Of a stretch of DNA of 64,000 nt, positions 393 to 62,148 are shown one piece after another. Position 1 is the stretch's first letter. Every line of letters begins with the position of its first letter. The stretch is from positions 65,431-129,430 of the forward strand of contig JAFQYG010000003.1 in NCBI GenBank assembly GCA_017406565.1, in the 5' to 3' direction. The translations under genes and the position numbers were made by a program. The notes below the pieces were generated by a model. It saw only the letters and a list, made by a program, of their open reading frames with translations. It was not told the origin of the DNA and searched no databases. The stretch comes from Candidatus Saccharimonadota bacterium. GTDB lineage: Bacteria > Patescibacteriota > Saccharimonadia > Saccharimonadales > Saccharimonadaceae.

Positions 393-2495
393 TTATTTCT
401 TCTCCCCCATAAATTCTTTAATTCGTTCTATTTCGTCTCTTAGAGCTGCTGCTTTTTCGAACTCCAAATTCGCTGCAGCTAGCTGCATCTCGGAAGATAA
501 TTGCTTAATTAGTGCTGGTAATTCATCTTTCGGGATTCGTTTCACATCTAATTGATCAGTCTTTTCTTTTTCTGGGATAATCGCCCGAAGTCCCTTAGAA
601 ATTTCTTTTTGTACTGAATGTGGTTTAATTCCGTGCTTTTCATTGTATTCTTTCTGAATCTCGCGGCGCCGATTGGTCTCTGAAATCGCTTTTTCCATAC
701 TTTCAGTAATATAATCAGCATACATAATAACTTTTCCTTCTTCATGCCGTGCTGCGCGCCCAATCGTTTGAATTAATGCTGATTCAGACCGTAGAAACCC
801 TTCCTTGTCCGCGTCAAGAATTGCTACTAAAGAAACTTCAGGCAAATCCAATCCTTCACGTAGTAGGTTAATTCCCACTAACACATCATAAACTCCTTCA
901 CGCAAATCACGTAAGATGTCACCACGCTCCAAAGTGTCAATATCGGAATGAATATACGCAGTTTTTACGCCACGTTCCTTTAAATGGTCAGATAAATCCT
1001 CCGCCATCCGTTTGGTCAAAGTCGTAATTAATGTCCTCTGCCCTTTAGCGATTCGGCGGTCTATTTCTTCCATTAAATTATCAATCTGACCTTCCGAACC
1101 ACGTACTTCTACTTCAGGATCAAGCAATCCAGTCGGACGAATTACCTGTTCTGCTGGCGCAGGTGATACCTCAAGCTCATATTCTCCCGGAGTTGCTGAT
1201 ACATAAATCGCTTGATTGATATGTTTTTGGAATTCGCCATAAGTCAAAGGGCGGTTATCTAGTGCAGACGGCAAACGAAAACCATGTTCAACCAGTGACA
1301 TTTTTCTGGCGTGGTCGCCATTGTACATTCCGCGTACCTGTGGCAAAGTCATATGCGATTCATCGACAATCAAAAGCCAATCTTTCGGGAAGAAATCAAG
1401 CAAAGTCGCCGGTGGTTCTCCCGCTCGGCGCCCATCTAAATGTCGAGAATAGTTTTCGATTCCCTTCACGAAGCCTGTCTCTTTTAACATTTCCAAGTCA
1501 TATTTAGTGCGCTGACTTAACCTCTGTGCTTCCAAGTATTTTTGATGCTTTTCGAAATATTTCAATCTTTCTTCGAATTCTGCCCTAATTGTCACCAAAG
1601 CTTTTTCTAATTGATCCATCGGCGTCGCATAGTGAGTATTTGGAAAAATATGTATATGATCAGGTTTTTCTCGAATTTCAAAAGTCAGCGGGTCCACGAT
1701 TTTCACCTCTTCCAAAGTGTCAAATCCAAATTCAAATCGATAGGCATATTCTCCGTTGGCTGGATATAAATCAATCGTATCACCCATCACTCGAAAATTA
1801 CCTCGTTCAAATGCCAAATCGTTGCGGTGGTATTGCATTGCCACTAGACGGTGGATGAATTCGAGTTGTGTCAATTTGGGATTTGAAATCGAGAGGTTCG
1901 AGGGGCTTCCGGAGGTTACGACCGAGGGTGAGGGCGCTTCGCCCGTGACGACGGTCCGAAGCGACCCGTCCCCGAGAACTTCCTGATTCAAATCCCAACC
2001 CTGTTCAGTTCGCCACATCGGTAACGACATCTCAGTATAATGGTCTGGCGAACCAATGCCGTAAATACAAGATACGGATGCAATTACGATGCAATCGCGT
2101 CGCGTGAGTAATGCTTCGGTTGCACCGTGTCTCAACCTATCAATCTCGTCATTAATCGCCGAGTCCTTTTCGATATATGTGTCAGTTGAGGCGATATAGG
2201 CCTCTGGCTGGTAATAATCAAAATATGAAACAAAATAGTGTACTTCGTTTTCTGGGAAGAATTCTCTGAACTCTGAATATAGCTGCGCAGCTAGAGTTTT
2301 GTTGTGTGCAAGCACTAGTGTAGGTCGCTGAGTCTTCTCGATAATATTAGCCATCGTGAATGTCTTACCCGAACCAGTCACACCAAGCAATGTCTGTTCG
2401 TGGACATTACGATTAATCCCATCCACGAGTTGCTTAATCGCGGATGGCTGGTCGCCAGTCGGCTGATATTTTGATACTAACTTAAATTTTGCCAT
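393..2495 (-). CDS. uvrB: Excinuclease ABC subunit B, with a ~40-aa in-frame insertion
   Basis: GVTGSGKT Walker [33 protein letters not shown] motifs. Start moved to MAKFKL (2495), which lies 7 nt after TGTTATAAT. Confidence 0.97.
1878..1996 (+). repeat. Palindromic in-frame insertion element in uvrB (type C, antisense to gene)
   Basis: Arms GGGATTTGAA / TTCAAATCCC; inner GGTTC-GA-GGGG ... CCCC-GA-GAAC; encodes [40 protein letters not shown], which is absent from canonical UvrB. Confidence 0.85.
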
Positions 2496-2571
2496 TATAT
2501 AGATTATAACATGGGTACAACAATAAGTATAAGCAACCACTTTTGATAGTTTTATACTATAATAATCATAT

Positions 2572-2790
2572 ATGGCTAAATATATAATTACCGTCAAACC
2601 AGGTTCATCTCAAGAAAAGATTGTTGAATCTACTTCGGGTGAATTAATTGTCTACCTCCGCGCTAAACCACATGATGGTGAAGCAAATACTGCTTTGATC
2701 AAGCTTCTTTCTAAGCATTTTGATATACCTAAGACATCTATCAATATTACTCGTGGTCAAAAATCTCGCGTTAAAACTATCGAATTCTAA
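2572..2790 (+). CDS. DUF167/YggU family protein
   Basis: VKPGSS...[22 protein letters not shown]...RGQKSRVK motif. Confidence 0.85.
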
Positions 2791-2808
2791 ATCACTGATT
2801 ATTTATTA

Positions 2809-4260: not shown

Positions 4261-4280
4261 ATATGTACATTATAACATAA

Positions 4281-4429
4281 GATAGTAGTTTTATGAGCAT
4301 TGAACGAACCAAGTAATTTTTATTAATTTTTAGGTTTTTTGAGCGAGGGTGGTGGGTATAGTGAAAAAATCCGTAAAAAAATTATTAAAAATTACTTGAC
4401 GTGAGTGAAGCGCGAATAAAACTACTATC
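4281..4429. repeat. 149-bp nested intergenic inverted repeat between greA and lysS
   Basis: 14-bp perfect arms GATAGTAGTTTTAT (4281-4294) / ATAAAACTACTATC (4416-4429); 21-bp arms 4311-4331 / 4377-4397 with 1 mismatch; G-rich centre. Confidence 0.8.
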
Positions 4430-4434
4430 GTATG

Positions 4435-4881
4435 TTAATTGATACTAAGAATATTTATTTTTTTACCATTATGTTCAAAAGATTCATTGGCTTTATGTCC
4501 AAGTAAAGCTTTACCAATTGGCGATTCGTTTGAGATTTTGCCCTCTAATGGGTTCGCTTCTGTTGTACCAACTACAGTATAAGTAACTTTCTTACCGTTC
4601 ATATTGAGTGTAACGGTAGCACCAAGGTCAACCTTAGTTTTCTTGCCACCACGAATTACTTTAGCGTTTTTTAAGATTTCTTGGATTTCCAAAATACGGC
4701 TTTCAGCGACTTTTTGCTCGTTCCTAGCTGAACTGTATTCTTCATTTTCTGACAAATCACCAAAAGATCTCGCTATAGCAATCCGCTCAGCAATTGCGGG
4801 ACGCCCTTTAATGAGCTCATCTAGCTCCTTCTCGAGCTCTTTCTTCCCTTCTGCAGTCAAACTGATACTTTTCTTTATCAT
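4435..4881 (-). CDS. greA: Transcription elongation factor GreA
   Basis: GDLSENEEY, ISNESPIGKALLG motifs. Confidence 0.96.
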   Translation of the reverse strand: MIKKSISLTAEGKKELEKELDELIKGRPAIAERIAIARSFGDLSENEEYSSARNEQKVAESRILEIQEILKNAKVIRGGKKTKVDLGATVTLNMNGKKVTYTVVGTTEANPLEGKISNESPIGKALLGHKANESFEHNGKKINILSIN

Positions 4882-16028: not shown

Positions 16029-17285
16029 TTATTTAAACATCCTTTTCCGTTTTAATAGTGAATGATATGTAATCGCAAAACGGTGCGCTTCTTCGTCAAT
16101 GCGAGCGATTAAGCGCGCCACATGGGAATTATTGGATAATTCTATGCTTTTTAAATCTGGAGTAATTAGTTTTGTTTTTGCGTTTCTCGAATGATCACCA
16201 GATTTATTGCGGCCGATTACGGGTATATTATATGGCTCCACTAGCGGTAAAATAGCTTTGACTTGCGTATTTCCTCCATCCAAAATGATTAAATTTGGAA
16301 AATCCCATTCTTGATGTTTCAATCTACGCGACAATACTTCTTGCATACTCTTTAAATCGTCATTTGTAGAAGTGCGTATTTTAAATTTACGATACTCGCT
16401 ACGTGCAGAGGCTCCGTTTAAAAATACTACCATACTGCCGACTGTATTTTTGCCAGCCTGGTGAGATATATCATACCCCTCAATGCGACGTGGCGGTTCA
16501 TCCAATCCAAGCATTTCTTGTAATTGCTTTAAAGCTTGGTCGGAAGATATATCAAGAAATTCTTTATCAGAAAATAAAATTTTTTTCTTCAACTCACGAA
16601 GACCAGCTAGTTGGTCTCTTGCCTCAGCGGCCAACTCGTAATTCCCTTTATCCGATTCGGCACGCATAGTTTTTTCTAAATCCTTTAACAGTTTTTCGCG
16701 GTCGCCCTCTAGATATCTAATTAGTTTTCGGAGGTTTCTCTTATAATCTTTAGGTGTGCTTTTTTCTATCTCGATACCAGGAGTTAACCCAAGATCTGTG
16801 TCTAAAGTTTTATGCCCAGTATAAGGCTTAGTATAATAAGGAAAAATCCGCCTAAGACTTCGAACGGCTTTTTCAATTGCTGATTTTCCGTAAAATGGAC
16901 CAATATAAGTTGCTTTATCATCTACAGGATTTCTGGTGAAGCTGATATATGGCACGTCCTCATTCATTGTGATTCTAACGTATGAAACTGTTTTATCATC
17001 ACGTAGTAAAATATTCCATTTTGGCATATATCTTTTAATCATTTCTGATTCTAAAAACAGCGCATCTATTTCTGTATCTACTACAATCCAATCAGTGTCC
17101 GCAATTTCGCGTACTAGTGCCTCAGTCTTGACATCTTTTTGATTTTTTTGAAAATACTGTCGCACGCGATTTTTGAGCACTGCAGCCTTGCCTACATATA
17201 TTATTTCACCAGCTGAATTTTTATGAAAATATACTCCCGGTGCACTTGGGAGTTTTTTTAGTTTTTGTTTCAAACTATCATTCAT
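16029..17285 (-). CDS. uvrC: Excinuclease ABC subunit C (short, no C-terminal HhH)
   Basis: GIY-YIG (PGVY...IIYVGKA..LKNRVRQYF), RIEGYDISH, LIILDGG, DEEAHRFAITYH motifs. Confidence 0.93.
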   Translation of the reverse strand: MNDSLKQKLKKLPSAPGVYFHKNSAGEIIYVGKAAVLKNRVRQYFQKNQKDVKTEALVREIADTDWIVVDTEIDALFLESEMIKRYMPKWNILLRDDKTVSYVRITMNEDVPYISFTRNPVDDKATYIGPFYGKSAIEKAVRSLRRIFPYYTKPYTGHKTLDTDLGLTPGIEIEKSTPKDYKRNLRKLIRYLEGDREKLLKDLEKTMRAESDKGNYELAAEARDQLAGLRELKKKILFSDKEFLDISSDQALKQLQEMLGLDEPPRRIEGYDISHQAGKNTVGSMVVFLNGASARSEYRKFKIRTSTNDDLKSMQEVLSRRLKHQEWDFPNLIILDGGNTQVKAILPLVEPYNIPVIGRNKSGDHSRNAKTKLITPDLKSIELSNNSHVARLIARIDEEAHRFAITYHSLLKRKRMFK

Positions 17286-17291
17286 ATTATA

Positions 17292-17320
17292 ATTATATCA
17301 CACTTATGGCAAAATGTCAA
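17292..17320 (-). promoter_or_regulatory. Consensus sigma70 promoter of leaderless uvrC
   Basis: TTGACA (17315-17320), 17 nt, TATAAT (17292-17297), 6 nt, ATG. Confidence 0.8.
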
Positions 17321-17326
17321 TTACAA

Positions 17327-24051: not shown

Positions 24052-24069
24052 AAAAAATGTAGATACATT

Positions 24070-24962: not shown

Positions 24963-25073
24963 TAAAATTCCCTCTTAACTTTATTATTATATGGTGCCCA
25001 TTTGCTTACAGCAATAACAAACGAGCTGAAACTCTTACAATAATTATATCACACTTACCCTAAAATGTCTACA

Positions 25074-25106
25074 AAATAGCACTATATATTACATATAGTG
25101 CTATTT
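25074..25106 (-). terminator. Hairpin terminator after tig
   Basis: AAATAGCACTATAT-ATTAC-ATATAGTGCTATTT. Confidence 0.7.
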
Positions 25107-33842: not shown

Positions 33843-34796
33843 CTAATCTTTTCTTCTGGTAATTTTCTTAATGGCTTTCTTCATTTTGCTTGCCAGCTCT
33901 GAAGAGACATCATAGCTTGCGTCGGCGAGTCTAGTTACAGCATTATCAACATTCTCGGTATTCTGCGGTTTATTATGTGTTTTAGTTTGGCTTTTTATTA
34001 TCGCCTCAGGTGTAGGGTCAACACCGAAATCTGCTTTAATATCGGCTGAGATTTCGAGTAATTTTCCTTTTTCTATTTTACTAAAATCAAATACATCTTT
34101 ACCTGCGACTACCTTTAGTGTTCCCAAGAAACAATCTACATCTATAATGGAAAATTCTACTTTATATTTAGTAAGTTTTACTTTAACATCCTTGATGTCA
34201 ATGACTTTGCCTAAGAAAAGAGTAAAGGGGGCATCCCCATAGTCATCTTGTATCATTGCAAATTCACTATTAAAACCAGCGACTTGCCCATTTGGGGTAT
34301 CGATTGGAAAGAAATCAAATTGCTTATTAAAATCTTCTATATTATCATAAACCCCAATCTTAAAAGCGAAAGCAGATAGCTCGACATTAACATCTTTATT
34401 CTCCAACTTTTCATCCCATAATGCATAACGGTTTACGGTTTCAATTACAAATCGTTGAGTGCCACCATCTGAAACTGTTGCAGAATAATGTTCATTTGCT
34501 TCACCTGAAGCGGGCAAACGTTCTATTAAGTGTATCTTTTTTGGTTTCGCATCAATGGTCAGGTCACAATCGTATAATGTAAGTCTGTCGTTTTCGACTT
34601 TTAATAGCGCAGTGATTAGCCCAAACTTCTTTTTTGTGGATTGATCTTTCAGGGGATATTCAGTTGTAAGATAGTTTCCATCTTTAGATATAAATGACAT
34701 CTTTCCCATCGAAGAACTAGTAACGACAAAATCACTTACGAGTTTATTTTCGTTTTTGTCGCCATCTTTTATGAATGATTGATGTCGTATTGGCAT
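33843..34796 (-). CDS. Hypothetical protein between the direct repeats
   Basis: 317-aa ORF with its own TGCTATAAT 6 nt before ATG; no motif confidently recognised. Confidence 0.75.
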   Translation of the reverse strand: MPIRHQSFIKDGDKNENKLVSDFVVTSSSMGKMSFISKDGNYLTTEYPLKDQSTKKKFGLITALLKVENDRLTLYDCDLTIDAKPKKIHLIERLPASGEANEHYSATVSDGGTQRFVIETVNRYALWDEKLENKDVNVELSAFAFKIGVYDNIEDFNKQFDFFPIDTPNGQVAGFNSEFAMIQDDYGDAPFTLFLGKVIDIKDVKVKLTKYKVEFSIIDVDCFLGTLKVVAGKDVFDFSKIEKGKLLEISADIKADFGVDPTPEAIIKSQTKTHNKPQNTENVDNAVTRLADASYDVSSELASKMKKAIKKITRRKD

Positions 34797-34902: not shown

Positions 34903-34903
34903 A

Positions 34904-34987
34904 TGGTGCCCGGGACAGGATTTGAACCTGCACGCTTGAGGCATATGCTCCTAAGGCATACGTGTCTACCAATTCCACCACCCGGGC
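34904..34987 (-). tRNA. tRNA-Leu (TAG)
   Basis: Acceptor GCCCGGG/CCCGGGC-A-CCA; anticodon arm TATGC-CTTAGGA-GCATA; GGTTCAAATCC. Confidence 0.95.
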
Positions 34988-35565: not shown

Positions 35566-35619
35566 ATTAATAAACTCCTTATATTACCATTATATCACAC
35601 TTTTGCTAAAAATGCAAGA

Positions 35620-38536: not shown

Positions 38537-38602
38537 GACTATCCCCTCCAACCGGAGGGGCATTTTTTGCGAAAAATGCAAAAATATAGTATAATATCAA
38601 AC

Positions 38603-39361
38603 ATGATTAAGTTTACTATTATCACTCTGTTCCAAGAGGCTCTGAAGCCTTATTTAGAGTCCTCAATGATGTACAAGGCTGCTCATAAAGGTCTTGTGGA
38701 GTTTAATTTTGTAGACTTACGCGAATTTGGTCTTGGCCCTCACAAATCTGTCGATGATACGCCTTACGGTGGTGGTGATGGGATGTTACTTAGATGCGAA
38801 CCAGTTTTTAATGCTATCGAATCGGTAAAAAAGAAAGATTCTAAGGCCAAAGTCATCCTTCCTACTCCTGTGGGTGATATCTGGAACCAAGATATGGCTA
38901 GAAAGTTTGCGAATGGGCAAGCAGAATCTTTTTCGAGGAGCATATTTTCCGACGTGGAAAATACGGAACGACCGAGCCCCTTAGGCGAGGGTGCGAGGGA
39001 GCGTTCCGAGAAAAACGATTCTTCTTGCCACTATGTAATCCTCTGCCCTCATTATGAGGGGTACGATGAACGTATCTTAAGCATTGTAGACTATAAAGTA
39101 TCCCTGGGTAAATATGTTCTTACTGGCGGCGAATTGCCAGCTCTTATCATCATTGATTCGGTTGTTCGCTTAATACCAGGGGTGCTTGGTGGCGAAAACT
39201 CAGCTGCGATTGAAAGCTTTTCTGATGGAGATAATTTAGAGTATCCTCAGTACACCAAACCATATGATTTTCGCGGCATGACAGTGCCAGACGTGCTACT
39301 CTCTGGTAATCATGGCGAAATCGCTAAATGGCGCAAACAACACTCCGGCAAAGCAAAATAA
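38603..39361 (+). CDS. trmD: tRNA (guanine37-N1)-methyltransferase with in-frame insertion
   Basis: VDDTPYGGGDGM, CPHYEGYDER, SLGKYVLTGGELPA, VPDVLLSGNH motifs; start moved to MIKF. Confidence 0.97.
   Translation: MIKFTIITLFQEALKPYLESSMMYKAAHKGLVEFNFVDLREFGLGPHKSVDDTPYGGGDGMLLRCEPVFNAIESVKKKDSKAKVILPTPVGDIWNQDMARKFANGQAESFSRSIFSDVENTERPSPLGEGARERSEKNDSSCHYVILCPHYEGYDERILSIVDYKVSLGKYVLTGGELPALIIIDSVVRLIPGVLGGENSAAIESFSDGDNLEYPQYTKPYDFRGMTVPDVLLSGNHGEIAKWRKQHSGKAK
38917..39028 (+). repeat. Palindromic in-frame insertion element in trmD (type A, sense)
   Basis: 78-nt core 38933-39010 TCGAGGAGCATATTTTCCGACGTGGAAAAT...GAGCGTTCCGAG; arms GCAAG.AGAATC.TTTT / AAAAA.GATTCT.CTTGC. Confidence 0.92.
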
Positions 39362-39363
39362 AC

Positions 39364-39505
39364 CAGTAAAAGACGGCCTTTCGACCGTCTTTTCGCTGTT
39401 ACGCGCCCACCCTTGGGGCACATTGTTTTGTTTTAATCCGCTGTTTGTTTTTATGAGTCTCCACACTCCACCTTTCAGTGGAACCCCTGTGAAGCGTACC
39501 AGCTT
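39364..39505 (-). ncRNA. Candidate novel structured small RNA (~140 nt)
   Basis: TTGACA (39535-40)-17-TATTAT (39512-17) promoter; 5' GCTGGTACGC pairs with GCGTAACAGC; two GAAA-tetraloop hairpins; A-rich linker; ends in terminator 39368-39393. Confidence 0.65.
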
Positions 39506-39594
39506 ATAAATATAATAAAGCATAAGCGTGGGACTGTCAAGCGATTTCTGGCACAAAATTTGACAAAATTGTAAAAAATGACTTTTCCACAGAA

Positions 39595-39619
39595 AAATCC
39601 CTGGCGAGGCCAGGGATTT
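39595..39619 (-). terminator. Terminator of 39619..40122
   Basis: AAATCCCTGGC-GAG-GCCAGGGATTT. Confidence 0.8.
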
Positions 39620-40122
39620 CAGAATACCCCCTCATTCTGATAATCCGGATGCACGTAGTAATATTTATTCAGATTGAGGTTGTTACCGTTTTGTAAATCC
39701 CAAAGAAGAATTGCCGTACATAGATTAAACTGATCACTGTTTAAAAAATATGTTTCACCAGTATCGGTTTTTATTCTGAATATGTCTCTCGGGAAACGGT
39801 TTGTACGTGGCTCACCGTGGGTAAGCCTTGTCACAGATGTAATATATGATGTAACAACAGGGTCACCGTTGCGATGCCCATGGCATCCATACATTTTACC
39901 ACCTAATTTCATCTTACCACGAAGCTGAATTTCTATCAGATTAGGATGGCTCCAAAAATGATAAAAATCTCTAATCGCTGTTTCGCGGTTATCGATCCCA
40001 TCATCTTCCATAAAAAGTGGCAACCATTCGACTAACTGTCTAGTCTCATCAGCATAAAGTTTATTCGGAATTTTCCAACTCGGACGAGCATGATTTCCGC
40101 CCCTTCCATTCGTAGTTCTCAT
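39619..40122 (-). CDS. Hypothetical solo protein
   Basis: ORF with SD GAAAGGGGGTG, upstream TTGACT/TGCTATAAT promoter and own terminator. Confidence 0.7.
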   Translation of the reverse strand: MRTTNGRGGNHARPSWKIPNKLYADETRQLVEWLPLFMEDDGIDNRETAIRDFYHFWSHPNLIEIQLRGKMKLGGKMYGCHGHRNGDPVVTSYITSVTRLTHGEPRTNRFPRDIFRIKTDTGETYFLNSDQFNLCTAILLWDLQNGNNLNLNKYYYVHPDYQNEGVF

Positions 40123-40232
40123 TTGACTCACCCCCTTTCGTTCCACGTATCGATCTTAAAGTACTTGTCTAGAAGACGCTATATCCTCATATTATAGCAC
40201 AAACTTTATAAAAAGTCAATATTATGCTTTAA

Positions 40233-41726
<1,494 letters not shown>

Positions 41727-46317: not shown

Positions 46318-47991
46318 ATGAGCTTATTTAAGTCCAAAAATCAGTCTGGAAAGTCCGCTGGTAATCATGCGGCCTTAGCTGAGATTGCTTTAAATAGTAT
46401 CCACGACGGAGTAGTAATGACCGACGGTAGAGGCACTATTCAGTTTATCAATCCTGCTGCTGTTACTATGACCGAATGCGAAACAGCTGACAAGGCCATC
46501 GGACTAGATTATGGCTTGATTATTCGGATTGAATCCAAAGAAGGACGTGAATTACCCGATAACGAAAACCCGCTCATTCGAGCTATGAAGACCAACCAGC
46601 CACTCGAAAAAGCCCAAGTAGCTTTAATTTGCACAAAATCTAATAAGCGTATCCCAATTGCCATTTCTGTACACTCGGTTGAGGGCTCTACGGATAGTCA
46701 TATTATTACTTTTCGCGATATTGCCCGTGAATTAGAAGAAGAAGGCGAACAGGCTGAGTTTATCTCTACAGCTTCGCATGAAATGCGTACACCAGTAGCC
46801 ACGATCGATGGTTACCTATCTCTAGCACTTAATCCCAAGACATCAACTATTGATGAACGTGCCCGCGGTTATCTCTCTTCAGCACAAGCCGCTTCCAAAC
46901 ACCTCGGTAAATTATTCCAAAATCTGCTCGACATCACCAAACTCGATGATGGCAGGATAAGACCTCATTTTGTGCCGGTTGAAATGATAGAAGAAATCAA
47001 AGTAATCACTGATGATTATATTGAACGTGCCAAAGAGAATAAGATTACTTTCAACTATGGTTCTAGCCAGAAACTTTCTTTCGATAGCAATCGTCGTCTC
47101 GCACAAGTAGTTTATAGTTTTGTCGATCGTGATTTCCTACGCGAAGTAATGGACAATTTGATTGAAAATGCCCTAAAATATACTCCAGAAGGTGGTTCAG
47201 TTTATGTTAACGTTCGTGGTGATGGAGATAGAGTTGTAATCAATGTGACAGACACTGGCATTGGCATATCCGCTGATGACCTTGGCCACATTTTCCAAAA
47301 ATTCTATCGAGCAGATAATTCTGATACTAGAGAAATAGGCGGTACTGGCCTTGGCTTGTACTTAGTCAAACAACGTGTTGAAGCAATGGGTGGTAAAGTT
47401 TGGGCTGAGTCCGCTTTTGGTGATGGTTCAACGTTTTATGTCTCTTTGCCTAGACTTACAGAAGACGAATATAATAAAAGGATGATTGCTGTGCAAAATC
47501 AAGATATGATTGAAGACAAAAAACCTCCAGTCATTCCACCAATCACGGTGGCTCCAGCAGCTGAGCCGGCTGCACCAACAACTCCTACTACACCCACTGA
47601 ACCAGCTGCGCCTGTAGCACCTGTAGAACAGGCTAATCCCACACCTACGCCAACCCCTACACCTGTACCAACAACTCCTCCAGCCCCTGTCGCTCCAACG
47701 GCTTCAGCTACGCCTGCCGCTCCAAAACCAGCGGCTACGACACCTACGCCTGTGAACCCTAGCCCCGCTCCAACGCCAAACGCAACCCCAACTCCAACCC
47801 CAGCCCCTGTCTCTACCACGGCTCAGGCTGTTGCGACCCCACCTGCATCATCAACCGCAAATCCTACCCCTATACCACCACCTCAGCCAAGTGCAGGGCA
47901 AAATACAATCTCTTCCCCTCCACCTGCACCACCAACTACTAACCCAGTACAACAAAATATTAATAATAACGTAAACGGAGAAGCAAAATGA
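46318..47991 (+). CDS. Soluble PAS sensor histidine kinase with Pro/Thr/Ala-rich tail
   Basis: PAS (DGVVMTDGRGTIQFINPAA), ASHEMRTP, NLIENALKYT, DTGIGI, GTGLGL motifs. Confidence 0.93.
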   Translation: MSLFKSKNQSGKSAGNHAALAEIALNSIHDGVVMTDGRGTIQFINPAAVTMTECETADKAIGLDYGLIIRIESKEGRELPDNENPLIRAMKTNQPLEKAQVALICTKSNKRIPIAISVHSVEGSTDSHIITFRDIARELEEEGEQAEFISTASHEMRTPVATIDGYLSLALNPKTSTIDERARGYLSSAQAASKHLGKLFQNLLDITKLDDGRIRPHFVPVEMIEEIKVITDDYIERAKENKITFNYGSSQKLSFDSNRRLAQVVYSFVDRDFLREVMDNLIENALKYTPEGGSVYVNVRGDGDRVVINVTDTGIGISADDLGHIFQKFYRADNSDTREIGGTGLGLYLVKQRVEAMGGKVWAESAFGDGSTFYVSLPRLTEDEYNKRMIAVQNQDMIEDKKPPVIPPITVAPAAEPAAPTTPTTPTEPAAPVAPVEQANPTPTPTPTPVPTTPPAPVAPTASATPAAPKPAATTPTPVNPSPAPTPNATPTPTPAPVSTTAQAVATPPASSTANPTPIPPPQPSAGQNTISSPPPAPPTTNPVQQNINNNVNGEAK

Positions 47992-48545
47992 GTAAAATAA
48001 TGGTAGTCGAAGACGACGCAAACCTACGAGAAATCTACAGTGTCCGCATTACCGCCGAAGGCTACGATGTGGTGCCAGCAGGTGATGGCGAGGAGGCTCT
48101 TGCCATTGCGGTGCGTGAGAAACCAGATTTAATTTTGTCAGACGTTATGATGCCTAAAATCTCCGGCTTTGATATGCTAGATATTTTGCGCTCCACACCA
48201 GAGACCGCCAGCATTAAAGTCGTCATGATGACCGCTCTTTCTGGCGATGATCAACGCCAACGTGGCGAACGCTTAGGCGCCGACCGCTATCTTGTTAAAT
48301 CCCAAGTCGGCATCGAAGATGTAATTAGTACTATCCACGAAGTGCTTGGCGATGCTCCAGCTACTGCTTCTGCGGATGCATCGTCCACCACTTCCTCCGT
48401 CTCCTCAACTTCTACGTCTACACCAACAGAAGCCCCGACAACCCCACCAACTCCAACCACTACAGCATATACCCCACCACCAGTACTTTCAGGTGAACCA
48501 ATCCCCCAGGTAAATAATGGACAATCAGTCGCTCCGGCTCAATAA
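47988..48545 (+). CDS. Response regulator receiver protein with low-complexity tail
   Basis: IMVVEDD, PDLILSDVMMP..SGF, YLVK motifs. Confidence 0.92.
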   Translation: MSKIMVVEDDANLREIYSVRITAEGYDVVPAGDGEEALAIAVREKPDLILSDVMMPKISGFDMLDILRSTPETASIKVVMMTALSGDDQRQRGERLGADRYLVKSQVGIEDVISTIHEVLGDAPATASADASSTTSSVSSTSTSTPTEAPTTPPTPTTTAYTPPPVLSGEPIPQVNNGQSVAPAQ

Positions 48546-49323
48546 ATTTCTTGCCGAACGCCTTGGTGTTTCACGTCGCGAAGCCGACGAGTTAATTAGT
48601 GTCGGAAAAATTACGGTAAATGGTGAAAAAGCTGTTTTGGGTGTTCGTATTGACAAAAAAAGCAAAGTATGCTATAATAACAAGATAGTTCCGTTTGATA
48701 CGGAATTTTCTTATTTTGCATTTAATAAACCGGTTGGATATGTTTGCTCACGGCGCGCTCAAGGTCAAGCTCCTACTATTTACACATTATTACCTGAGAA
48801 ATTCCAAAAACTAAAAACCGTCGGTCGTCTCGATAAAGACAGTTCCGGTCTGATTTTACTTACCAATGACGGTGATTTTGCTTTCCAAATGACGCACCCC
48901 AAATTCCGCAAAACCAAAACCTATCAAGTTGAACTCGATAAGCCATTAGAACCACTCCACCGACAGATGATCTCGGATTTCGGTGTTATGCTTGACGACG
49001 GCCCCAGCCGATTTAAGATAATAAAAGATGTATTCCCCGAAGCTAATAAAACTTCTTTTGAAGGGGATCCGGAGCCTGGCAAGGCGAGGAGTAGCGCCAC
49101 AACCCCTGTGTCGACAGGGGTTGTGGACGCGCCCCGAAAAAGAAGTTTTTTAGCTAAAGCAAAAAATGCATATACGGTTATATTGACCGAAGGCCGTAAT
49201 CGTCAAATTCGCCGAACTTTTGCTGCACTTGGTTATAAAGTCACCAAGCTTCATCGTATCAGCTTCGGAAAATACGAATTAAACGATTTAAAGCCCGGTA
49301 AATATGTTATAATTGAACCATGA
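48517..49323 (+). CDS. RsuA/RluB-family rRNA pseudouridine synthase with in-frame insertion
   Basis: S4 domain (RLNKFLAE.LGVSRREAD), VGRLDKDSSGLILLTNDG, EGRNRQIRR motifs. Confidence 0.93.
   Translation: MDNQSLRLNKFLAERLGVSRREADELISVGKITVNGEKAVLGVRIDKKSKVCYNNKIVPFDTEFSYFAFNKPVGYVCSRRAQGQAPTIYTLLPEKFQKLKTVGRLDKDSSGLILLTNDGDFAFQMTHPKFRKTKTYQVELDKPLEPLHRQMISDFGVMLDDGPSRFKIIKDVFPEANKTSFEGDPEPGKARSSATTPVSTGVVDAPRKRSFLAKAKNAYTVILTEGRNRQIRRTFAALGYKVTKLHRISFGKYELNDLKPGKYVIIEP
49041..49155 (+). repeat. Palindromic in-frame insertion element in the pseudouridine synthase (type B, sense)
   Basis: 81-nt core 49058-49138, nearly identical to the obgE element 1 core; hairpin CCACAACCCCTGT-GTCG-ACAGGGGTTGTGG; arms AGCTAA.AAAACTTCTTTT / AAAAGAAGTTTTTTAGCT. 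Confidence 0.92.
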
Positions 49324-55227: not shown

Positions 55228-55316
55228 AATACGCCCCCTTCCTAGCTCAAAAAGCAAGATATCTACATTATATCACAAAATTGCAAAAAAGTCAATAGTA
55301 AACATAGCCATTTTGG

Positions 55317-56176: not shown

Positions 56177-57334
56177 TTACACAATTATCCCACCACCGAG
56201 GCAAACCTCGCCATCATACAATACGGCAGATTGTCCGCTTGCGGGGCGTTTGATTTCTTTTCCAAAATGCAATGTCTTGCCATCAAAAGTTGCTGGGATT
56301 AGCGGTGCTCGATGGCGTAATCTAACTTGCACACTACTATTTACATCTTGATGTAGCAATATATCTTTCAATTCCAACTCTTTCGTCCAGATTGCTTCAT
56401 GATTTAAGTTTTTTGATACGTAAACAATATTATTTTTGATGTCTTTCTTTACCACATAATACGGCATTCCATCATTCACGGTGCCTTTTTCACCATTTAA
56501 GTATAAGCCATGCCTTTGTCCGATCGTATAAAACACCGCACCTTCGTGATATCCTAATACTTTTTCACTTTCAATTTCACGAATCTCACCAGGCTCAATA
56601 TCGATGTATTCTTTAAGAAAATCTTTCATCCCAACTTCACCCACAAAACATACACCCATAGATTCTTTTTTATAAGCATTGTGCAGCCCATGTTTCTCAG
56701 CTAGTTTCTTCACTTCTGGTTTCAACATTTCTCCAATCGGAAAAATCGTATGTGCCAATGCCTCATCTGAAATACGGTATAAAAAATACGTTTGATCTTT
56801 ATTTTCGTCTACTGCACGCATGAGTAGGGTCTGTTCAGATAATTCTTGGCTCGGGGTATTCCGGAGCGCGGCAGCGCGAGGGTTAGCGCGCTCGCCCCGT
56901 GGCGACGGGCGCGAGCGACGCGACCCCGAGTAAGAATTATCTGATAGAGTTTTAATGCGAGCATAATGTCCAGTAGCAATATAATCAGCCCCCGCCTCCA
57001 TAGCTTTTTCATAAAACAGTTTAAACTTAATTTCTTGATTACACATAATGTCGGGATTTGGTGTATTGCCTTTTTTAAATTCATCTAACATATATTCCAC
57101 AACTTTTTCACGATATGCATTTTCAAAATCCCAAACTTCAAAATCAATGCCAAGTTTTACTGCCACGCGTTTTGCATCAGCTAAATCTTCTGCCCAAGGA
57201 CACTTCATCCCGGGTAAATCTTGTGACCAGTTTTTCATATAAACACCAATCACGCAATATCCTTGCTCCTTCAAAAGTAAAGCCGAGACACTCGAATCAA
57301 CACCGCCACTCATCCCCACATATACTTTTTTCAT
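56177..57334 (-). CDS. mnmA: tRNA-specific 2-thiouridylase with in-frame insertion
   Basis: GMSGGVDSSV, NPDIMCNQEIKF, ATGHYAR, KDQTYFL, KKESMGVCFVG, GQSAVLY motifs. Confidence 0.97.
   Translation of the reverse strand: MKKVYVGMSGGVDSSVSALLLKEQGYCVIGVYMKNWSQDLPGMKCPWAEDLADAKRVAVKLGIDFEVWDFENAYREKVVEYMLDEFKKGNTPNPDIMCNQEIKFKLFYEKAMEAGADYIATGHYARIKTLSDNSYSGSRRSRPSPRGERANPRAAALRNTPSQELSEQTLLMRAVDENKDQTYFLYRISDEALAHTIFPIGEMLKPEVKKLAEKHGLHNAYKKESMGVCFVGEVGMKDFLKEYIDIEPGEIREIESEKVLGYHEGAVFYTIGQRHGLYLNGEKGTVNDGMPYYVVKKDIKNNIVYVSKNLNHEAIWTKELELKDILLHQDVNSSVQVRLRHRAPLIPATFDGKTLHFGKEIKRPASGQSAVLYDGEVCLGGGIIV
56835..56944 (+). repeat. Palindromic in-frame insertion element in mnmA (type C, antisense)
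   Basis: 13-bp perfect arms TCAGATAATTCTT / AAGAATTATCTGA; CTCGGGG / CCCCGAG; inner GCTCGC.CCCGT-GGCG-ACGGG.GCGAGC. Confidence 0.92.
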
Positions 57335-57452: not shown

Positions 57453-58919
57453 TTGGAAGCAAGAATGCAGGTATTTGTTAGATTTGTAGCATCTTTAGTT
57501 TTTCTAATGAGTGGACCAATTATCTTTGGTACACCTGTTTTTGGTATCGATAGTTCCACCATTAGTATTAATTTAGGTACTCTTCCCTCGCTAGATTTGA
57601 CTCCCGGTAGTTTTGGCTCCGTATCACAGTCAATAGATATAAACACTAATAATTTCACCGGATATACAGTTAGTCTTTCAAATCCTATTGATTCTACAGA
57701 TATGATTAACTCTGTTGACGATAGTTTAACCATTCCAACTATCACTTTGCCAGGTGACAGCACGTCAATTACTGAAGATGATTTTGAATCTGGGTATGGC
57801 ATCAGTGTAGACGGCACTAATTATTTACCCGCTCCAAATTCTACGAATAAAATTCTAATTGGTTCTAGTAATACGTCTGCCGCAAGTTCTTATAACCTTA
57901 CTTTCGGGGCCAAGCTAAATCCAAATACTGCGGCAGGTTCTTATTCTAAAACCTTCGTCGTTGAAGCTATTGTAAAAAGCCCCCAATTTTCAATTACCTA
58001 TGACGCTAATGCTGATAGCGACACAGTCACTGGTATGCCGAGTAATCAAAGCGTTACGGTATCTGACACTGGTATAGCTACTTTGCCCAACGACGTGCCT
58101 ACGCGTACTGGATATATTTTTCTTGGTTGGGACGAAGACGGTAACGCTACTACCCCAACCTATACTATCGACGGTACCAATACCATTACTTTAGACCCTA
58201 CCCAAGCGAACAATATTTCATTATATGCGATATGGCAATCCGATTCTGCCCCAGGTACTAGTGAAGTGGTTCATCCAGACGGCTCACGGACTCGTACTAC
58301 TATAGATGAAGATGGGAATAAATTTATTCAAGAAATCTCTGCCTCAGATGTAGTTACCGAATATCATATTGATACTACGGCCTCCGGTGGCTATACTATC
58401 ACTTATGGTAACAGTCTTGACACTGAGCTAATTCCTTTTGATGGAAATGCTTTTACTATACACATCGTATTTAAGGCCGACTTAAGCCAAAACAATAACA
58501 AGTTTATTGTGGGTGCTATGAGTAAAGACGGAAACTATTATAATGGTATGTCGCTCTTCGCTTTTAATAGCAATTATTTTAGAACTGCTATTTATAAAAA
58601 CCGTACTAGGAGTTCGGCTACTGGGCTGATCACAGCAAATTTGTATATTGGGCTTAATGCTTCGGCAATGAGCGGTGATACATTTGATATCACTATTACA
58701 TATGACCCAAAGGGCTACAACAATAATTACGCTGAACTTACGGCTTCTCTTGTTGGTGGGAATTCTGGTTCTCAGCACAATTCATCTTCATCAAGCAATA
58801 TCCCCACCAATTTGCCAGACGCCACCATTACGCTTGGTGGAAACGGGATTGACTTGTCTGACGATGTTAGTTCAATTACGATTATGAGTTTTGAAGTAAT
58901 TAAGACAATTTCAGAATAA
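57453..58919 (+). CDS. Secreted surface protein: shared N-terminal domain + InlB-B repeat + beta-rich (LamG-like) C-terminus
   Basis: INTNNFTGYTV, GAK...AAGSYSKTF, PTRTGYIFLGW; C-terminal fold call is inference. Confidence 0.75.
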   Translation: MEARMQVFVRFVASLVFLMSGPIIFGTPVFGIDSSTISINLGTLPSLDLTPGSFGSVSQSIDINTNNFTGYTVSLSNPIDSTDMINSVDDSLTIPTITLPGDSTSITEDDFESGYGISVDGTNYLPAPNSTNKILIGSSNTSAASSYNLTFGAKLNPNTAAGSYSKTFVVEAIVKSPQFSITYDANADSDTVTGMPSNQSVTVSDTGIATLPNDVPTRTGYIFLGWDEDGNATTPTYTIDGTNTITLDPTQANNISLYAIWQSDSAPGTSEVVHPDGSRTRTTIDEDGNKFIQEISASDVVTEYHIDTTASGGYTITYGNSLDTELIPFDGNAFTIHIVFKADLSQNNNKFIVGAMSKDGNYYNGMSLFAFNSNYFRTAIYKNRTRSSATGLITANLYIGLNASAMSGDTFDITITYDPKGYNNNYAELTASLVGGNSGSQHNSSSSSNIPTNLPDATITLGGNGIDLSDDVSSITIMSFEVIKTISE

Positions 58920-58992: not shown

Positions 58993-60231
58993 TTATTTAC
59001 TAATCCTTTTTTGTTCGTTTTTGATTACGGAATTAATAATTGAAGCTGCTTCGTGGATTTGTTCTTCATTATTCATTTCACCAAAAGTGATTCTTAGTGA
59101 CCCAGTAATTTGTTCTTCTGTCAATCCAATTGCTTTTAGTACATGTGATTTTTCACCTTTAGATGCTGCACAGGCTGCACCAGTTGCCACATATACGCCC
59201 TCTTCTTCAAGCAGAAATATCAATCTTTCTGCATCCAAACCCGGGAAGCTTACCACTACGAAATTATCCAAGCAATGCTTTTTATTAATTAATTCATAAC
59301 CACTAAGTTCTGATAGTAGTATCTTACGCCAAGATGCATATTTTTTGCGATTTCCATTTAAATGCTCTTTGGCAAGTTCTATAGCTTTCGCAAACCCAAT
59401 CACGCCAGGCACATTTTCCGTACCCGAGCGTAAGCCCTTCTCCTGTCCGCCGCCCAAAGTCAAGGGTTTTAGTTTTGCGTCATGTGAAACATACAGAGCT
59501 CCCACACCTTTCGGCCCATAGACTTTTGCTGCATTTAAAGTTAAAAGGTCCACTCCAAGTCTAGCCACGTTTATATCCAGTAGATTTAAAGCTTGCGAAG
59601 CATCGGAATGAAGTAATAATTGTGTTTTTATCCCTCTTTTCATTCGGTCGATTTTGATTTCGCGAATAATACTAGCAATTTCTGCCATAGGTTGGATTGT
59701 ACCGAGCTCGTTATTAGCTAAAGATACCGAAATCATTTGCGTATCATCGGTAATTTTTGCTTTCAAATCATCCAAATCAATTAGCCCATTAGATAAAACC
59801 TTCACCGCTTGACCACCGTAACTATCTGCTACCGCTCTGACCGATTCATGTTCCGTTTCCAAGTACAATAGACGCGAAGGATGCCCTCGTTCGAGGAGCA
59901 TATTTTCCGACGTGGAAAATACGGAGCGACCGAGCCCCGTAACGACGGGCGCGAGGGAGCGTTCCGAGAACGATGGGCAACTTCGTGTCTGTATAGCTGT
60001 AAACGCAAGATTATTCGCTTCTGTCGCTCCAGCCGTTATCACGAGATCTGATGCTTTAGCACCTACCGCATGTGCAATCACACCCTTAGCGTTTTCGTAA
60101 TCAGCTGCTACTTTTTTAGCCGGCAAATAAGCTGCAGAAGGATTAAAGAAATCAACCGAAAAATACGGCCTCATCGCCTCTAAAACTTTATCAGAAACTG
60201 GCGTAGCCGCCGCATGGTCAAGGTAAATCAT
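58993..60231 (-). CDS. iscS: Cysteine desulfurase IscS/NifS with in-frame insertion
   Basis: IYLDHAAATP, TAGATEANN, HSDASQA, AAKVYGPKGVG, RSGTENV, TGAACA motifs. Confidence 0.95.
   Translation of the reverse strand: MIYLDHAAATPVSDKVLEAMRPYFSVDFFNPSAAYLPAKKVAADYENAKGVIAHAVGAKASDLVITAGATEANNLAFTAIQTRSCPSFSERSLAPVVTGLGRSVFSTSENMLLERGHPSRLLYLETEHESVRAVADSYGGQAVKVLSNGLIDLDDLKAKITDDTQMISVSLANNELGTIQPMAEIASIIREIKIDRMKRGIKTQLLLHSDASQALNLLDINVARLGVDLLTLNAAKVYGPKGVGALYVSHDAKLKPLTLGGGQEKGLRSGTENVPGVIGFAKAIELAKEHLNGNRKKYASWRKILLSELSGYELINKKHCLDNFVVVSFPGLDAERLIFLLEEEGVYVATGAACAASKGEKSHVLKAIGLTEEQITGSLRITFGEMNNEEQIHEAASIINSVIKNEQKRISK
59870..59990 (+). repeat. Palindromic in-frame insertion element in iscS (type A, antisense)
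   Basis: 78-nt core 59891-59968; arms AGAC.CGAAG..TGCCC.TCGTTC / GAACGA.GGGCA.CTTCG.GTCT. Confidence 0.93.
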
Positions 60232-60729: not shown

Positions 60730-61086
60730 TTAGCAATAGAGTTTTGTTTTGACAAGGTTCAGATAACCTTTAGCGGCTTTACGAAAATTATCCAATTCCT
60801 CGCCAGTGATTTTTTCATAATTACCACCAGCTGGTTTTTTGAATACACCAGTGGGACGAACCTCGTAACGCACAGTCATCTCTTCTAACTTACCAGCGTT
60901 ATTTACGAAACTTTCATGCCAAATCCATACATTACGGCGCGATTCAAAAAATTCTCGTCGATGTCCTTCTGGGATTGGACCAAACAAAGTCCTACCAAGT
61001 GCAGACTCAGCGTTGATCAAATCTTCATAGCTAAAACCATTGTTATAGCGTCCAGAACTAAAACCTAGCAATTTCGTAAGCGACAT
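60730..61086 (-). CDS. Conserved-looking hypothetical protein
   Basis: LINAESALGRTLFGPIPEGHRREFF...WIWHE; overlaps the upstream small ORF. Confidence 0.72.
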   Translation of the reverse strand: MSLTKLLGFSSGRYNNGFSYEDLINAESALGRTLFGPIPEGHRREFFESRRNVWIWHESFVNNAGKLEEMTVRYEVRPTGVFKKPAGGNYEKITGEELDNFRKAAKGYLNLVKTKLYC

Positions 61087-61205
61087 TCTTCAATCTCCTC
61101 TGCAATGGCATTTAACTCTTTGTACACTTCAAAAGTATCATTCGTAGCACCAAAATCATAGGTGTTACGATTTCCAAATGATGGTACAATAAACTCAGTA
61201 TTCAT
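61065..61205 (-). CDS. 46-aa small ORF absent from ORF track
   Basis: MNTEFIVPSFGNRNTYDFGATNDTFEVYKELNAIAEEIEECRLRNC*; TGCTATAAT 6 nt before ATG; fills the gap between tatD and the 60730 ORF. Confidence 0.6.
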   Translation of the reverse strand: MNTEFIVPSFGNRNTYDFGATNDTFEVYKELNAIAEEIEECRLRNC

Positions 61206-61236
61206 AATCTAATTATAGCACAAAAAGTTTAAAAAG

Positions 61237-62148
61237 TCAATGCTTATAATCAAAACTATTTAGTCTGTAAAGGTTTTCAACATTTTCAGAGGTAATAGCA
61301 GCAACTTCTTCCTGGGGCATATCAAGCTTCTCAGCTAACCATTTTGCGATATCAGCAATATAAGCCGGCTCATTAGTACTACCCCTGTGAGGAATCGGCG
61401 CCAAAAACGGCGCATCGGTCTCTAATAATATTCTTTCCAGGGGTGGAGTAGGTAAAGTCGAATAAGTCGCCAATCCATTTACGCCGACATAGAACTCTGT
61501 TTCATTCAAAATACGCTTCAGCACCTTTTTGCTATCTGTAAAAGAATGCACTACGCCACGAACCTTCGGGAAATTCTCTATAATAGGGAAAAAATCTGCA
61601 AATGCTTCTCTGATATGAAAAGACACCGGTAAGTCATTATCGACAGTCAATTGTAGCATCTGTTCGAACAATTTAATCTGTGCTTCTCGATTGTAGCCGT
61701 CATAATGGTAATCTAGGCCAACTTCTCCGATTGCTACAAGGCGAGAAAAAAGTCCTTTCTCGGAACGCTCCCTCGCGCCCTCGCCTAAGGGGCTCGGTCG
61801 CTCCGTATTTTTCACGTCGGAAAATATGCTCCTCGAAAGGACATTTTCTTCTCGCCCTGTTTCCTCTGGATGAATACCATACGTCCAATACACTCCATCA
61901 TGGGTCATTGCGAAATCTCGTGCCACCAAAGAATCTTCTGGATCTGTCCCGATACAAATAATTTTCTCAACTCCCGCTTCATGTGCTCGTTTTACGCAGG
62001 CTTCAGCTTCCTCAGCGCTAAAGAATTGTGGGTCATGTAAATGACAATGGCTATCAATAAGAATCGGGAAACCCTCTTTTGAGGACCGTAAGCTCGGCCG
62101 AACGGCCTTGAGTGTGTCCGAGGAAGAGGGCTTTTGATCCTCAGGCAT
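61237..62148 (-). CDS. tatD: TatD family hydrolase with two palindromic insertions
   Basis: IDSHCHL, GIHP, AIGEVGLDY, FHIREA, GVVHSF, LETDAPFLAP motifs. Confidence 0.95.
   Translation of the reverse strand: MPEDQKPSSSDTLKAVRPSLRSSKEGFPILIDSHCHLHDPQFFSAEEAEACVKRAHEAGVEKIICIGTDPEDSLVARDFAMTHDGVYWTYGIHPEETGREENVLSRSIFSDVKNTERPSPLGEGARERSEKGLFSRLVAIGEVGLDYHYDGYNREAQIKLFEQMLQLTVDNDLPVSFHIREAFADFFPIIENFPKVRGVVHSFTDSKKVLKRILNETEFYVGVNGLATYSTLPTPPLERILLETDAPFLAPIPHRGSTNEPAYIADIAKWLAEKLDMPQEEVAAITSENVENLYRLNSFDYKH
61740..61856 (-). repeat. Palindromic in-frame insertion element in tatD (type A, sense)
   Basis: 78-nt core 61759-61836 is the reverse complement of the trmD core with few changes; arms GCGAGAA..AAAGTCCTTTC / GAAAGGAC.TTT..TTCTCGC. 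Confidence 0.93.
62063..62138 (+). repeat. Short palindromic element forming the tatD N-terminal extension (type D, antisense)
   Basis: CCCTCTTTT-GA-GGAC ... GTCC-GA-GGAAGAGGG enclosing GGCCG-AA-CGGCC; same tandem GA signature. Confidence 0.7.

Follow-up and report, generated by a model that had tools for sequence, protein, structure and literature searches.

The stretch of DNA analysed here, 64,000 nt of a Candidatus Saccharimonadota genome (contig JAFQYG010000003.1; hereafter the window), contains nine GC-rich islands (65-79% GC, 75-127 nt each), which lie within long open reading frames (ORFs) and fold into long hairpins with helices interrupted by opposed GA dinucleotides. We lean towards regarding these elements as members of a superfamily of non-autonomous, palindromic, GC-rich intragenic insertions, similar in kind to the Rickettsia palindromic elements (RPEs), which carry G.A boxes and act as single-stranded DNA (ssDNA) hairpins. 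The G.A motif is conserved and strand-defining, and it probably matters at the level of DNA.

In each window element, an outer stem of ~20-25 bp, rich in AT, is followed by an internal loop and a GC-rich core, the latter forming a three-way junction (Y shape) in types A, B and C and a simple hairpin in type D. The minimum free energy of the predicted RNA fold ranges from -54 to -77 kcal/mol in the eight larger elements and is -35 kcal/mol in the small hairpin near the N-terminus of tatD. With DNA parameters, fold z-scores lie between -5 and -9, the small type D hairpin (z -1.7) being the exception. All 9 elements lie in ORFs whose Pfam domains continue on both sides of the insert.

A previous sequence-only reading of the window had described opposed GA dinucleotides at the base of eight of the nine copies, with the copy in mnmA as the exception. 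All nine copies were indeed found where it had located them. Six have a strict GA/GA base and two a GAA/GA base, and the base of the mnmA copy is closed by Watson-Crick (WC) TC/GA pairs. The pattern TTCGARG-N{50,80}-CCGAGAA has six matches against 0.02 expected, and none of 100 dinucleotide shuffles reached six, so that chance is excluded as the origin of the GA box. A strict scan for stem(4 WC)-GA-stem(4 WC) caught element 1 (Table 1) only, because the inner stems contain G.T pairs, and its criteria were then relaxed.

Further copies came from 80 Obg loci, each taken with 10 kb of flanking DNA at either end, and from 120 metagenome loci retrieved by an inner-arm pattern that excludes the basal loop. 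Detection by GC content was unselective in loci of 45-53% GC and iterated nhmmer was used instead, yielding 175 copies in 2.2 Mb of related DNA, which were assigned to 67 insertion sites by clustering of their flanks. Element size across the related loci is ~60-185 nt. All 80 Obg loci belong to Saccharibacteria, the nearest ones coming from sheep and goat gut metagenome-assembled genomes and from 'Ca. Nanosyncoccus', and the sequencing runs containing the window sequence are ruminant gut metagenomes. Of the relatives represented by these Obg loci, only L003-L042 were found to carry elements. Four hits to viral contigs with two core motifs lie in DNA of 51-68% GC without the element architecture and were dismissed as chance.

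Among the additional copies, from related genomes and metagenomes, the expected enrichment held and GA/GA is the dominant 2x2 loop. RNAfold structures of the 175 copies contain 97 GA/GA loops in the enclosing stem and at most four of any other 2x2 type. A separate scan, requiring at least four outer and at least three inner pairs, found GA/GA in 74 copies at 37 insertion sites; the runner-up was present in 15 copies at seven sites. When all loops were counted in one representative per site (n=60), 120 GA-type loops were obtained (85 GA/GA, 23 GGA/GA, 8 GA/GAA and 4 GAA/GA). This corresponds to about two per element, with at least one in 55 of the 60 representatives, while any other multi-nucleotide loop occurs four times at most. 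The loop context is always Py-GA-Pu (5' C/T-GA-G, 3' C-GA-G/A), and the three pairs immediately outside the loop are conserved too (TTY-GA-GR...YC-GA-RAA). These context counts were taken from GA-anchored ungapped windows rather than from an alignment or covariance model; when 38 type A copies were aligned with MAFFT, the basal GA was out of register in several rows. The Py-GA-Pu context favours sheared pairing in RNA and DNA, and from it the GA dinucleotides are predicted to form tandem sheared G.A pairs.

The motif is conserved at the base of the elements, where it had first been noticed, but it is not specific to the base, since GA/GA, GGA/GA and GAA/GA loops occur in both arms as well. Type A has the sequence GC-GA-CC-GA-GCCC... 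/ ...GGGC-GC-GA-GG-GA-GC in its long arm, where element 2 (trmD) has two more GA/GA loops. In types B and C, the sequence of hairpin 1 is TCC-GGA-GCNN...NNGC-GA-GGA; element 3, at the beta-hairpin tip of the N-terminal Obg fold, has a GGA/GA loop in this hairpin, and element 6 (mnmA) retains one. G.A opposition does occur in all four types, but these are less dissimilar than had been thought. Types A-D have a common architecture (Y shape, apical arm CCCGT-RRCG-ACGGG, hairpin TCCGGAG...CGAGG), and part of their sharing of G.A is thus due to common descent. The base itself exists in several states. Approximate counts among the 175 copies, from a scan that included a few false internal pairings, are 74 GA/GA, 6 GAA/GA, 29 TC/GA and 11 GA/TC (both Watson-Crick), 8 ambiguous, 2 AGA/GAA, 1 GGA/GA and 44 others, including truncated and nested copies. 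Copies of the subfamily with a Watson-Crick TC/GA base usually retain the GGA/GA loop in hairpin 1.

Comparison of copies located at the same site (37 comparisons, 28 multi-copy site clusters examined) revealed that the bases of the GA loops had changed in 45 of 378 cases (12%), as against 332 of 1162 (29%) for other unpaired bases and ~24% for paired bases. GA-loop bases therefore change at 0.4 times the rate of other unpaired bases and 0.5 times that of paired ones, and the motif can be called conserved, as had been claimed, apart from the share that descent contributes. Where both members of a pair have changed, 208 pairs still pair and 52 are broken. Outer stems, ~22 bp long in the family, are unrelated in sequence between copies with near-identical cores, yet paired, and the conserved part is internal. 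At the Obg site, comparison of orthologous insertions between species shows co-variation of the arm extending into the host A-D-L codons (AAATCAGC/GCTGATTT, AGGTCAGC/GCTGACCT and ATTGGCC/GGCCGAT). Only the outermost pairs of the outer stem extend into host codons. An origin of the outer stem by inverted copying of the host flank at insertion was rejected, because the arms are inserted DNA and are homologous between copies within one genome.

That the motif defines the strand of the element was likewise upheld: the GA strand folds better than its complement, by a median of 8.6 kcal/mol, in 54 of 60 sites, and with DNA parameters its advantage is 3-4 kcal/mol. Of 51 sites, 28 have the motif strand in sense and 23 in antisense to the host gene (p=0.58). 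Relative to GC skew, taken as a proxy for replication direction, the motif strand is the C-rich (negative skew) strand at 39 sites versus 11 (p=9e-5); averaging the skew over both gene orientations, which removes the transcription component, gives 27 sites versus 8 (p=0.002). The window has a base composition of 40% GC and a steadily negative GC skew on its plus strand. Eight of its nine motifs are on this strand, which is C-rich and carries the minority of genes, and the sole copy with a minus-strand motif is element 8, in the middle of tatD. Since the leading strand is, as a rule, G-rich, it is the weaker C.T/T.C hairpin that the lagging-strand template carries. Orientation thus follows replication and not transcription, which argues against a role in mRNA and points to single-stranded DNA as the active form.

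Several lines of evidence indicate that the elements are mobile and multi-copy. In related metagenomes, they are sequenced 10-20 times as deeply as their flanks, and contigs end at them. Elements 3 and 5 are 92% identical and lie in unrelated genes. Orthologues of Obg free of the insert are common, most species having GTVV-KKDGE-ILADL where the window Obg has 36 extra residues, and the mnmA site is empty in relatives (~40 nt versus 157 nt in the window, a difference of 117 nt); many such orthologous filled/empty pairs were found. By comparison with solved structures, the Obg insert maps between residues 101 and 103 of Bacillus subtilis Obg and the IscS insert falls in an alignment gap. The beta-hairpin tip of a pseudouridine synthase (GLERLDD-GRKRW when insert-free) carries elements of differing types and orientations in seven species, namely in the window (49041-49158) and in loci L003, L004, L005, L006, L012 and L015. 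Judged by these sequences, the tip is a hot spot of insertion or replacement.

Some copies are nested in the apical loop of another element (GTGGCG^AC), as observed in loci L004 (14413-14583), L005 (10289-10459 and 19004-19174), L007 (9244-9414) and L015 (20686-20856). Deleting the 75-nt hairpin in L004 restores the uninterrupted loop of the host element exactly. This arrangement suggests that hairpin loops serve as insertion targets. At the N-terminal Obg site of L003 (10267-10437) we detected a chimera with a 5' half of type B (TTCGAAGGGGGTCCGGAGCC...) and a 3' half of type A (...GGCGCGAGGGAGCGTTTCGAAAACGA), which implies that the types recombine. One copy of L007 (978-1094) is intergenic, with a base that is Watson-Crick paired throughout; it lies downstream of rpsG and might act as a terminator, while the rpsG-gap interval of the window (24056-24067) is empty. 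Evidently, the elements are not strictly intragenic.

Residence in genes nevertheless predominates, 155 of the 175 copies lying in open frames of at least 300 nt. The family as a whole is read in at least five of six frames; the GC core of type A is open in five of six, and so is element 7 (iscS). That an entire hairpin might be free of stop codons in all six frames was ruled out, as whole hairpins have only 2.5 open frames, compared with 1.7 in shuffles. When 5.8 billion proteins were searched with a six-frame peptide query, 60 hits were obtained; all those with a name are from Saccharibacteria. They fall into ~14 host families: IscS, ArgRS, TrmD, Obg, MnmA, RsmD, QueA, TsaD, FemAB, TatD, Dus, TruB, an exonuclease and a HAD protein. 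Host genes mainly encode enzymes of tRNA/rRNA modification and translation (TrmD, MnmA, IscS, QueA, TsaD, Dus, TruB and RsmD, and also the pseudouridine synthase, Obg and ArgRS). Among the hosts found there is no ribosomal protein or other highly expressed gene, an observation made without a statistical test; possibly, only weakly expressed genes tolerate the hairpins.

Element-bearing contigs are present in metatranscriptomes, though at a low share and with possible DNA carry-over. None of these contigs has a joint that would remove the element, and one spans the transition from the iscS element to its flank, which is weak evidence. As the host genes are essential, the frames intact and the element kept in RNA contigs, it would appear, on these indirect grounds, that the elements are translated in frame and tolerated by the host proteins. 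Processing at the RNA level, which had been suggested together with mobilisation, is unlikely, the motif being antisense in 23 of 51 sites, the frames open and the metatranscriptome contigs devoid of removal joints. The elements have no match in Rfam, either at the gathering threshold or at E<=5. A self-splicing intron, a ribozyme or another curated RNA family was accordingly rejected, given that neither an Rfam hit nor a removal joint in RNA contigs was found.

In the interpretation that we favour, the elements, which reside in frame at beta-hairpin tips and in linkers of housekeeping proteins, would be read through. The G.A loops, at the base and in the arms, represent the characteristic helix interruption of the family, conserved beyond what descent alone can explain. 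Anatomy, enrichment and conservation of the motif, residence in frame, presence/absence polymorphism and strand bias are direct observations; sheared pairing, an ssDNA form and reading by an enzyme are inferences drawn from them. Sheared G.A pairs would form on one strand only, the complement carrying C.T/T.C mismatches, and the tracking of replication direction by the motif strand would mean that the element matters as an ssDNA hairpin. Two routes to such a bias can be envisaged. A putative hairpin-reading enzyme may mobilise the element strand-specifically as ssDNA, in the manner of IS200/IS605 and REP/RAYT; alternatively, copies may persist more readily if the more stable G.A hairpin is not exposed on the lagging-strand template. 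The elements may even constitute a new class of intragenic ssDNA transposons of candidate-phyla-radiation bacteria, with a putative enzyme that reads the G.A bubbles of a Y-shaped DNA hairpin, much as HUH nickases do with parvoviral or IS200/IS605 hairpins, and inserts the element at replication forks, although we doubt it. If true, such a mechanism would account for the strand bias, for insertion into hairpin loops and for the lack of terminal repeats and of target duplications, and would provide the first mechanistic model for gene-invading palindromes of the RPE type.

A number of results weigh against the interpretation as mobile ssDNA hairpins. There is no signal of target-site duplication, the longest flanking direct repeat averaging 3.4 nt versus 3.0 nt in shuffled sequences; the element ends are fuzzy. 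The collected loci contain no filled/empty pair with flank identity above ~85-88%, and inspection of 31 aligned ends by eye detected no conserved flanking tag or tetranucleotide. Genes for a transposase, integrase, HUH enzyme or reverse transcriptase are missing among the window ORFs, and a phmmer search with E. coli RayT gave no hit at E<=10 among 6216 ORF segments of the 2.2 Mb of loci, which are not whole genomes. Moreover, about one quarter of the copies have a Watson-Crick base, chiefly 5' TC opposite 3' GA, and this TC/GA subfamily occupies many independent sites; the family can thus spread without a basal G.A bubble. With the basal mismatch dispensable and neither a mobilising nor a processing enzyme found, the suggestion that the motif is a recognition site did not gain support, and recognition of the G.A motif by an enzyme is unproven. 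Sampling and inference also have to be considered. Retrieval by the inner-arm pattern over-represents types A and C. Because homology to GA-bearing seeds determined which strand was called the motif strand, the folding asymmetry is not an independent test, and on short metagenomic contigs GC skew is a mere proxy for replication direction. Compensatory change could stem from selection, but also from template-switch homogenisation or re-insertion.

The last point leads to an account based on passive inheritance and mutational bias, which we consider unlikely. GA/GA would then be an ancestral relic, cheap in terms of stability and read by no molecule, and the pairing of the arms would result from intrastrand template switching (quasi-palindrome correction) or from repeated re-insertion at tolerated loops. 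A single architecture and several common motifs in all types do speak for a common origin. The 29 TC/GA and 11 GA/TC Watson-Crick copies are what template-switch correction predicts; one site may hold different elements, so that covariation between orthologues may be replacement; and neither the window scans nor the RayT search found an enzyme. Yet the slow change of GA-loop bases (0.4 times other unpaired, 0.5 times paired) is not expected of a relic, nor is the recurrence of the motif at two to four positions per element, always as Py-GA-Pu, while change in the flanking stems is saturated. Frequent homogenisation should have removed the mismatches, and the replication-strand bias requires a strand-specific process.

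It is improbable that the motif works in RNA, with G.A loops either binding a protein in a k-turn/L7Ae-like manner or breaking up duplexes so that host mRNA evades RNase III, and equally improbable that only elements of this kind would, for that reason, be tolerated within genes. The elements are transcribed with their host genes, their contigs occur in metatranscriptomes, their RNA folds are strong (-54 to -77 and -35 kcal/mol), tandem sheared G.A pairs are known as a protein-recognition motif of RNA, and, whichever way an element is oriented, its transcript keeps a 2x2 interruption (GA/GA or UC/UC). However, the GA strand coincides with the mRNA strand in only 28 of 51 sites and its orientation tracks replication, not transcription; the 2x2 or 3x2 loops have no 3-nt bulge, the defining feature of a k-turn; no Rfam match exists even at E<=5; and long uninterrupted duplexes remain in the outer stems. 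The boxes could also be imagined as a scar of insertion, the core having entered an AT-rich hairpin loop at GA and the two GAs being an unpairable direct target-site duplication. Nested insertions in apical loops occur, the L004 loop being restored exactly without its 75-nt insert, and near-identical cores are found in unrelated outer stems with only the TTY|GA...GA|RAA junction in common. We nonetheless hold this to be very improbable: GA/GA recurs in the core arms 2 bp apart, an implausible place for nested insertion; type A outer stems are recognisably homologous within one genome and so move with the core; comparisons of filled and empty sites place the arms within the inserted DNA; and at empty sites no stem-only hairpin with a GA loop was seen.

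Positions of the nine elements are given in Table 1.

Table 1. Elements of the window, with host genes and the state of the basal motif (coordinates in the window; strand is that of the motif).
Element	Type	Position (strand)	Host gene and location	Basal motif
1	Y-shaped, type C-like	1880..1994 (+)	uvrB 393..2597 minus, antisense	GA/GA 1900-1901 / 1974-1975
2	A	38916..39029 (+)	trmD 38567..39361 plus, sense	GA/GA 38935-36 / 39008-09
3	B	40552..40676 (+)	obg 40263..41726	GAA/GA 40575-77 / 40651-52
4	A	41335..41461 (+)	obg, linker before C-terminal OCT domain	GA/GA 41360-61 / 41433-34
5	B	49041..49158 (+)	pseudouridine synthase gene 48517..49323, beta-hairpin tip	GAA/GA 49060-62 / 49136-37
6	C	56835..56945 (+)	mnmA 56177..57334 minus, antisense	TC 56851-52 Watson-Crick with GA 56928-29
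7	A	59869..59993 (+)	iscS-like cysteine desulfurase gene 58993..60231 minus, antisense	GA/GA 59893-94 / 59966-67
8	A	61736..61860 (-)	tatD 61237..62148 minus, sense	GA/GA 61834-33 / 61761-60
9	D, simple hairpin	62063..62138 (+)	tatD near N-terminus, antisense	GA/GA 62081-82 / 62120-21

The ORFs of the window are housekeeping genes, among them uvrB, a class II aminoacyl-tRNA synthetase gene, greA, uppS, frr, rpsB, tsf, uvrC, eno, gap, rpsG, rpsL, tig, recG, trmD, obg, ruvX-yceG and a two-component pair; the remaining named ones are ftsA, alaS, mnmA, the iscS-like gene, tatD and bipA. Two tRNA-Leu genes are the only Rfam content of the window, no other family being found there. Further repeats are present. 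Between greA and the gene of the class II aminoacyl-tRNA synthetase (4273-4437), a nested palindrome rich in AT has two pairs of arms, 4273-4294/4416-4437 and 4310-4331/4377-4398, each 22 nt long and 95% complementary, and its sequence is unrelated to the GC-rich elements. Two 72-nt direct repeats (33634-33705 and 34834-34905, 89% identical, spaced by 1200 bp) flank one unannotated ORF (33843..34796, minus strand), the second adjoining the 3' end of tRNA-Leu(tag); the arrangement is att-like, without an integrase. At 30929-33631, a 900-aa protein contains seven stretches of DUF285, which corresponds to the PARCEL family of palindromic amphipathic repeats (PMC2996958); they are encoded by tandem repeats of 90 nt (32168-33499). 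We considered PARCEL/DUF285 as an identity for our elements and rejected it, for it is a tandem 25-residue repeat of surface proteins unrelated to them. A second protein with Flg_new domains is encoded at 57453-58919. Low-complexity coding sequence at 44443-46269 specifies an acidic, Glu/Asp-rich repeat protein without a Pfam match, and the histidine kinase (46318..47991) has a Pro/Thr/Ala-rich C-terminal tail of ~125 residues (47523-47901).

The intergenic region between trmD and ORF 39619..40146 (39362-39618) contains, on the minus strand at ~39365-39500, a candidate small RNA of ~140 nt. It has a promoter (TTGACA-17 nt-TATTAT) and a strong terminator (AAAAGACGG...CCGTCTTTT), folds with a z-score of -4.3 and has no Rfam match, and its metatranscriptome depth of 87 versus 0-15 is the highest of the region compared. 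A recurrent box, ATTGAC(T/A)TTTT...TGTGATATAAT on the minus strand, represents a sigma-70 promoter with extended -10 and is located upstream of minus-strand genes (17284-17325, 25035-25076, 35581-35622, 40183-40224, 55259-55300 and 61212-61241).

In full-text searches of the literature, we found no account of such elements from Saccharibacteria. With hundreds of copies, a strand-specific G.A signature and a replication-linked bias, the family gives rise to testable predictions about the active molecule and its partner enzyme. Inserts of 25-40 residues in Obg, TrmD, MnmA, IscS, QueA, TsaD and further proteins are to be regarded as mobile DNA and not as lineage-specific domains, which affects annotation of genomes of Saccharibacteria and other Patescibacteria. 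Being repeats, the elements also fragment metagenome assemblies.

Several known systems resemble the elements in one respect or another. Tandem sheared G.A pairs are a classic protein-recognition motif in RNA, and k-turns and loop motifs of RNA, as well as certain DNA hairpins, share with our motif the opposed 5'-GA-3'/5'-GA-3' flanked by C-G/G-C or T-A pairs. The elements differ in lacking a 3-nt bulge and in carrying the motif two to four times along coaxial helices. Identity with a k-turn was rejected because the loops are symmetric 2x2 or 3x2 loops without that bulge and GA is on the RNA strand in 55% of sites only. The terminal hairpin of minute virus of mice is a Y-shaped ssDNA of ~120 nt with two small arms and, in its stem, an asymmetric GAA/GA bubble that the HUH nickase NS1 uses. 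Elements 3 and 5 similarly have GAA/GA at the base of a Y, a likeness that we take as a lead only: one structure is a viral replication origin and the other an intragenic repeat, we postulate no link in sequence or evolution, and no HUH enzyme was found here. Mobile GC clusters of yeast mitochondria are short, GC-rich palindromic repeats of an AT-richer compact genome which may sit in coding sequence. They are, however, organellar, shorter and of other sequence, and we know of no G.A box in them.

In IS608 and ISDra2, orientation relates to replication. REP/REPIN elements with RAYT (Y1 HUH) transposases and IS200/IS605-derived palindrome-associated elements act strand-specifically as ssDNA and make no target-site duplication. 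The elements share with these systems an imperfect hairpin as the conserved feature in place of terminal inverted repeats, and with IS200/IS605 in particular a strand-specific hairpin whose orientation is tied to the replication strand (here a bias of 27:8 to 39:11); a signal of target-site duplication was not detected. IS200/IS605 elements insert next to a fixed tetra- or pentanucleotide, but here there is no conserved flanking motif, and no TnpA or other transposase in the window. REPs, or repetitive extragenic palindromes, are 20-40 bp long, extragenic and tagged by GTAG or CGTC (PMC3733652). Our elements are 3-5 times longer, mostly intragenic and without a conserved flanking tag, and identity with the short, extragenic, tagged REPs was therefore ruled out. 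A classical bacterial MITE (miniature inverted-repeat transposable element) was likewise rejected, because the arms pair but are unrelated in sequence between near-identical cores and conserved terminal inverted repeats are missing.

The closest likeness in function is to the RPEs, which were reportedly described by Ogata et al. in 2000 and 2002; Wolbachia has related protein-coding palindromes. To our knowledge, the way in which protein-coding palindromic repeats of this kind move has remained unknown since 2000. RPE-1 to RPE-8 are stem-loop repeats 100-150 bp long, situated in frame in housekeeping genes and also in intergenic regions of host-dependent bacteria with reduced genomes; they are translated and tolerated, and their mobilising enzyme is unknown (PMC2229807). 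The window elements resemble them as multi-copy long hairpins that lie in frame in housekeeping genes, at loops and linkers. Differences concern the host (Saccharimonadota), the GC-rich core in a genome of 40% GC, the Y-shaped three-way junction, the conservation of core and G.A box instead of the termini, the reading in at least five of six frames and the orientation biased to replication. Sequence homology to RPEs is not expected, in view of the GC-rich core and the different phylum, and by analogy the elements and the RPEs would belong to the same functional class, that of palindromes which invade genes and are read through.

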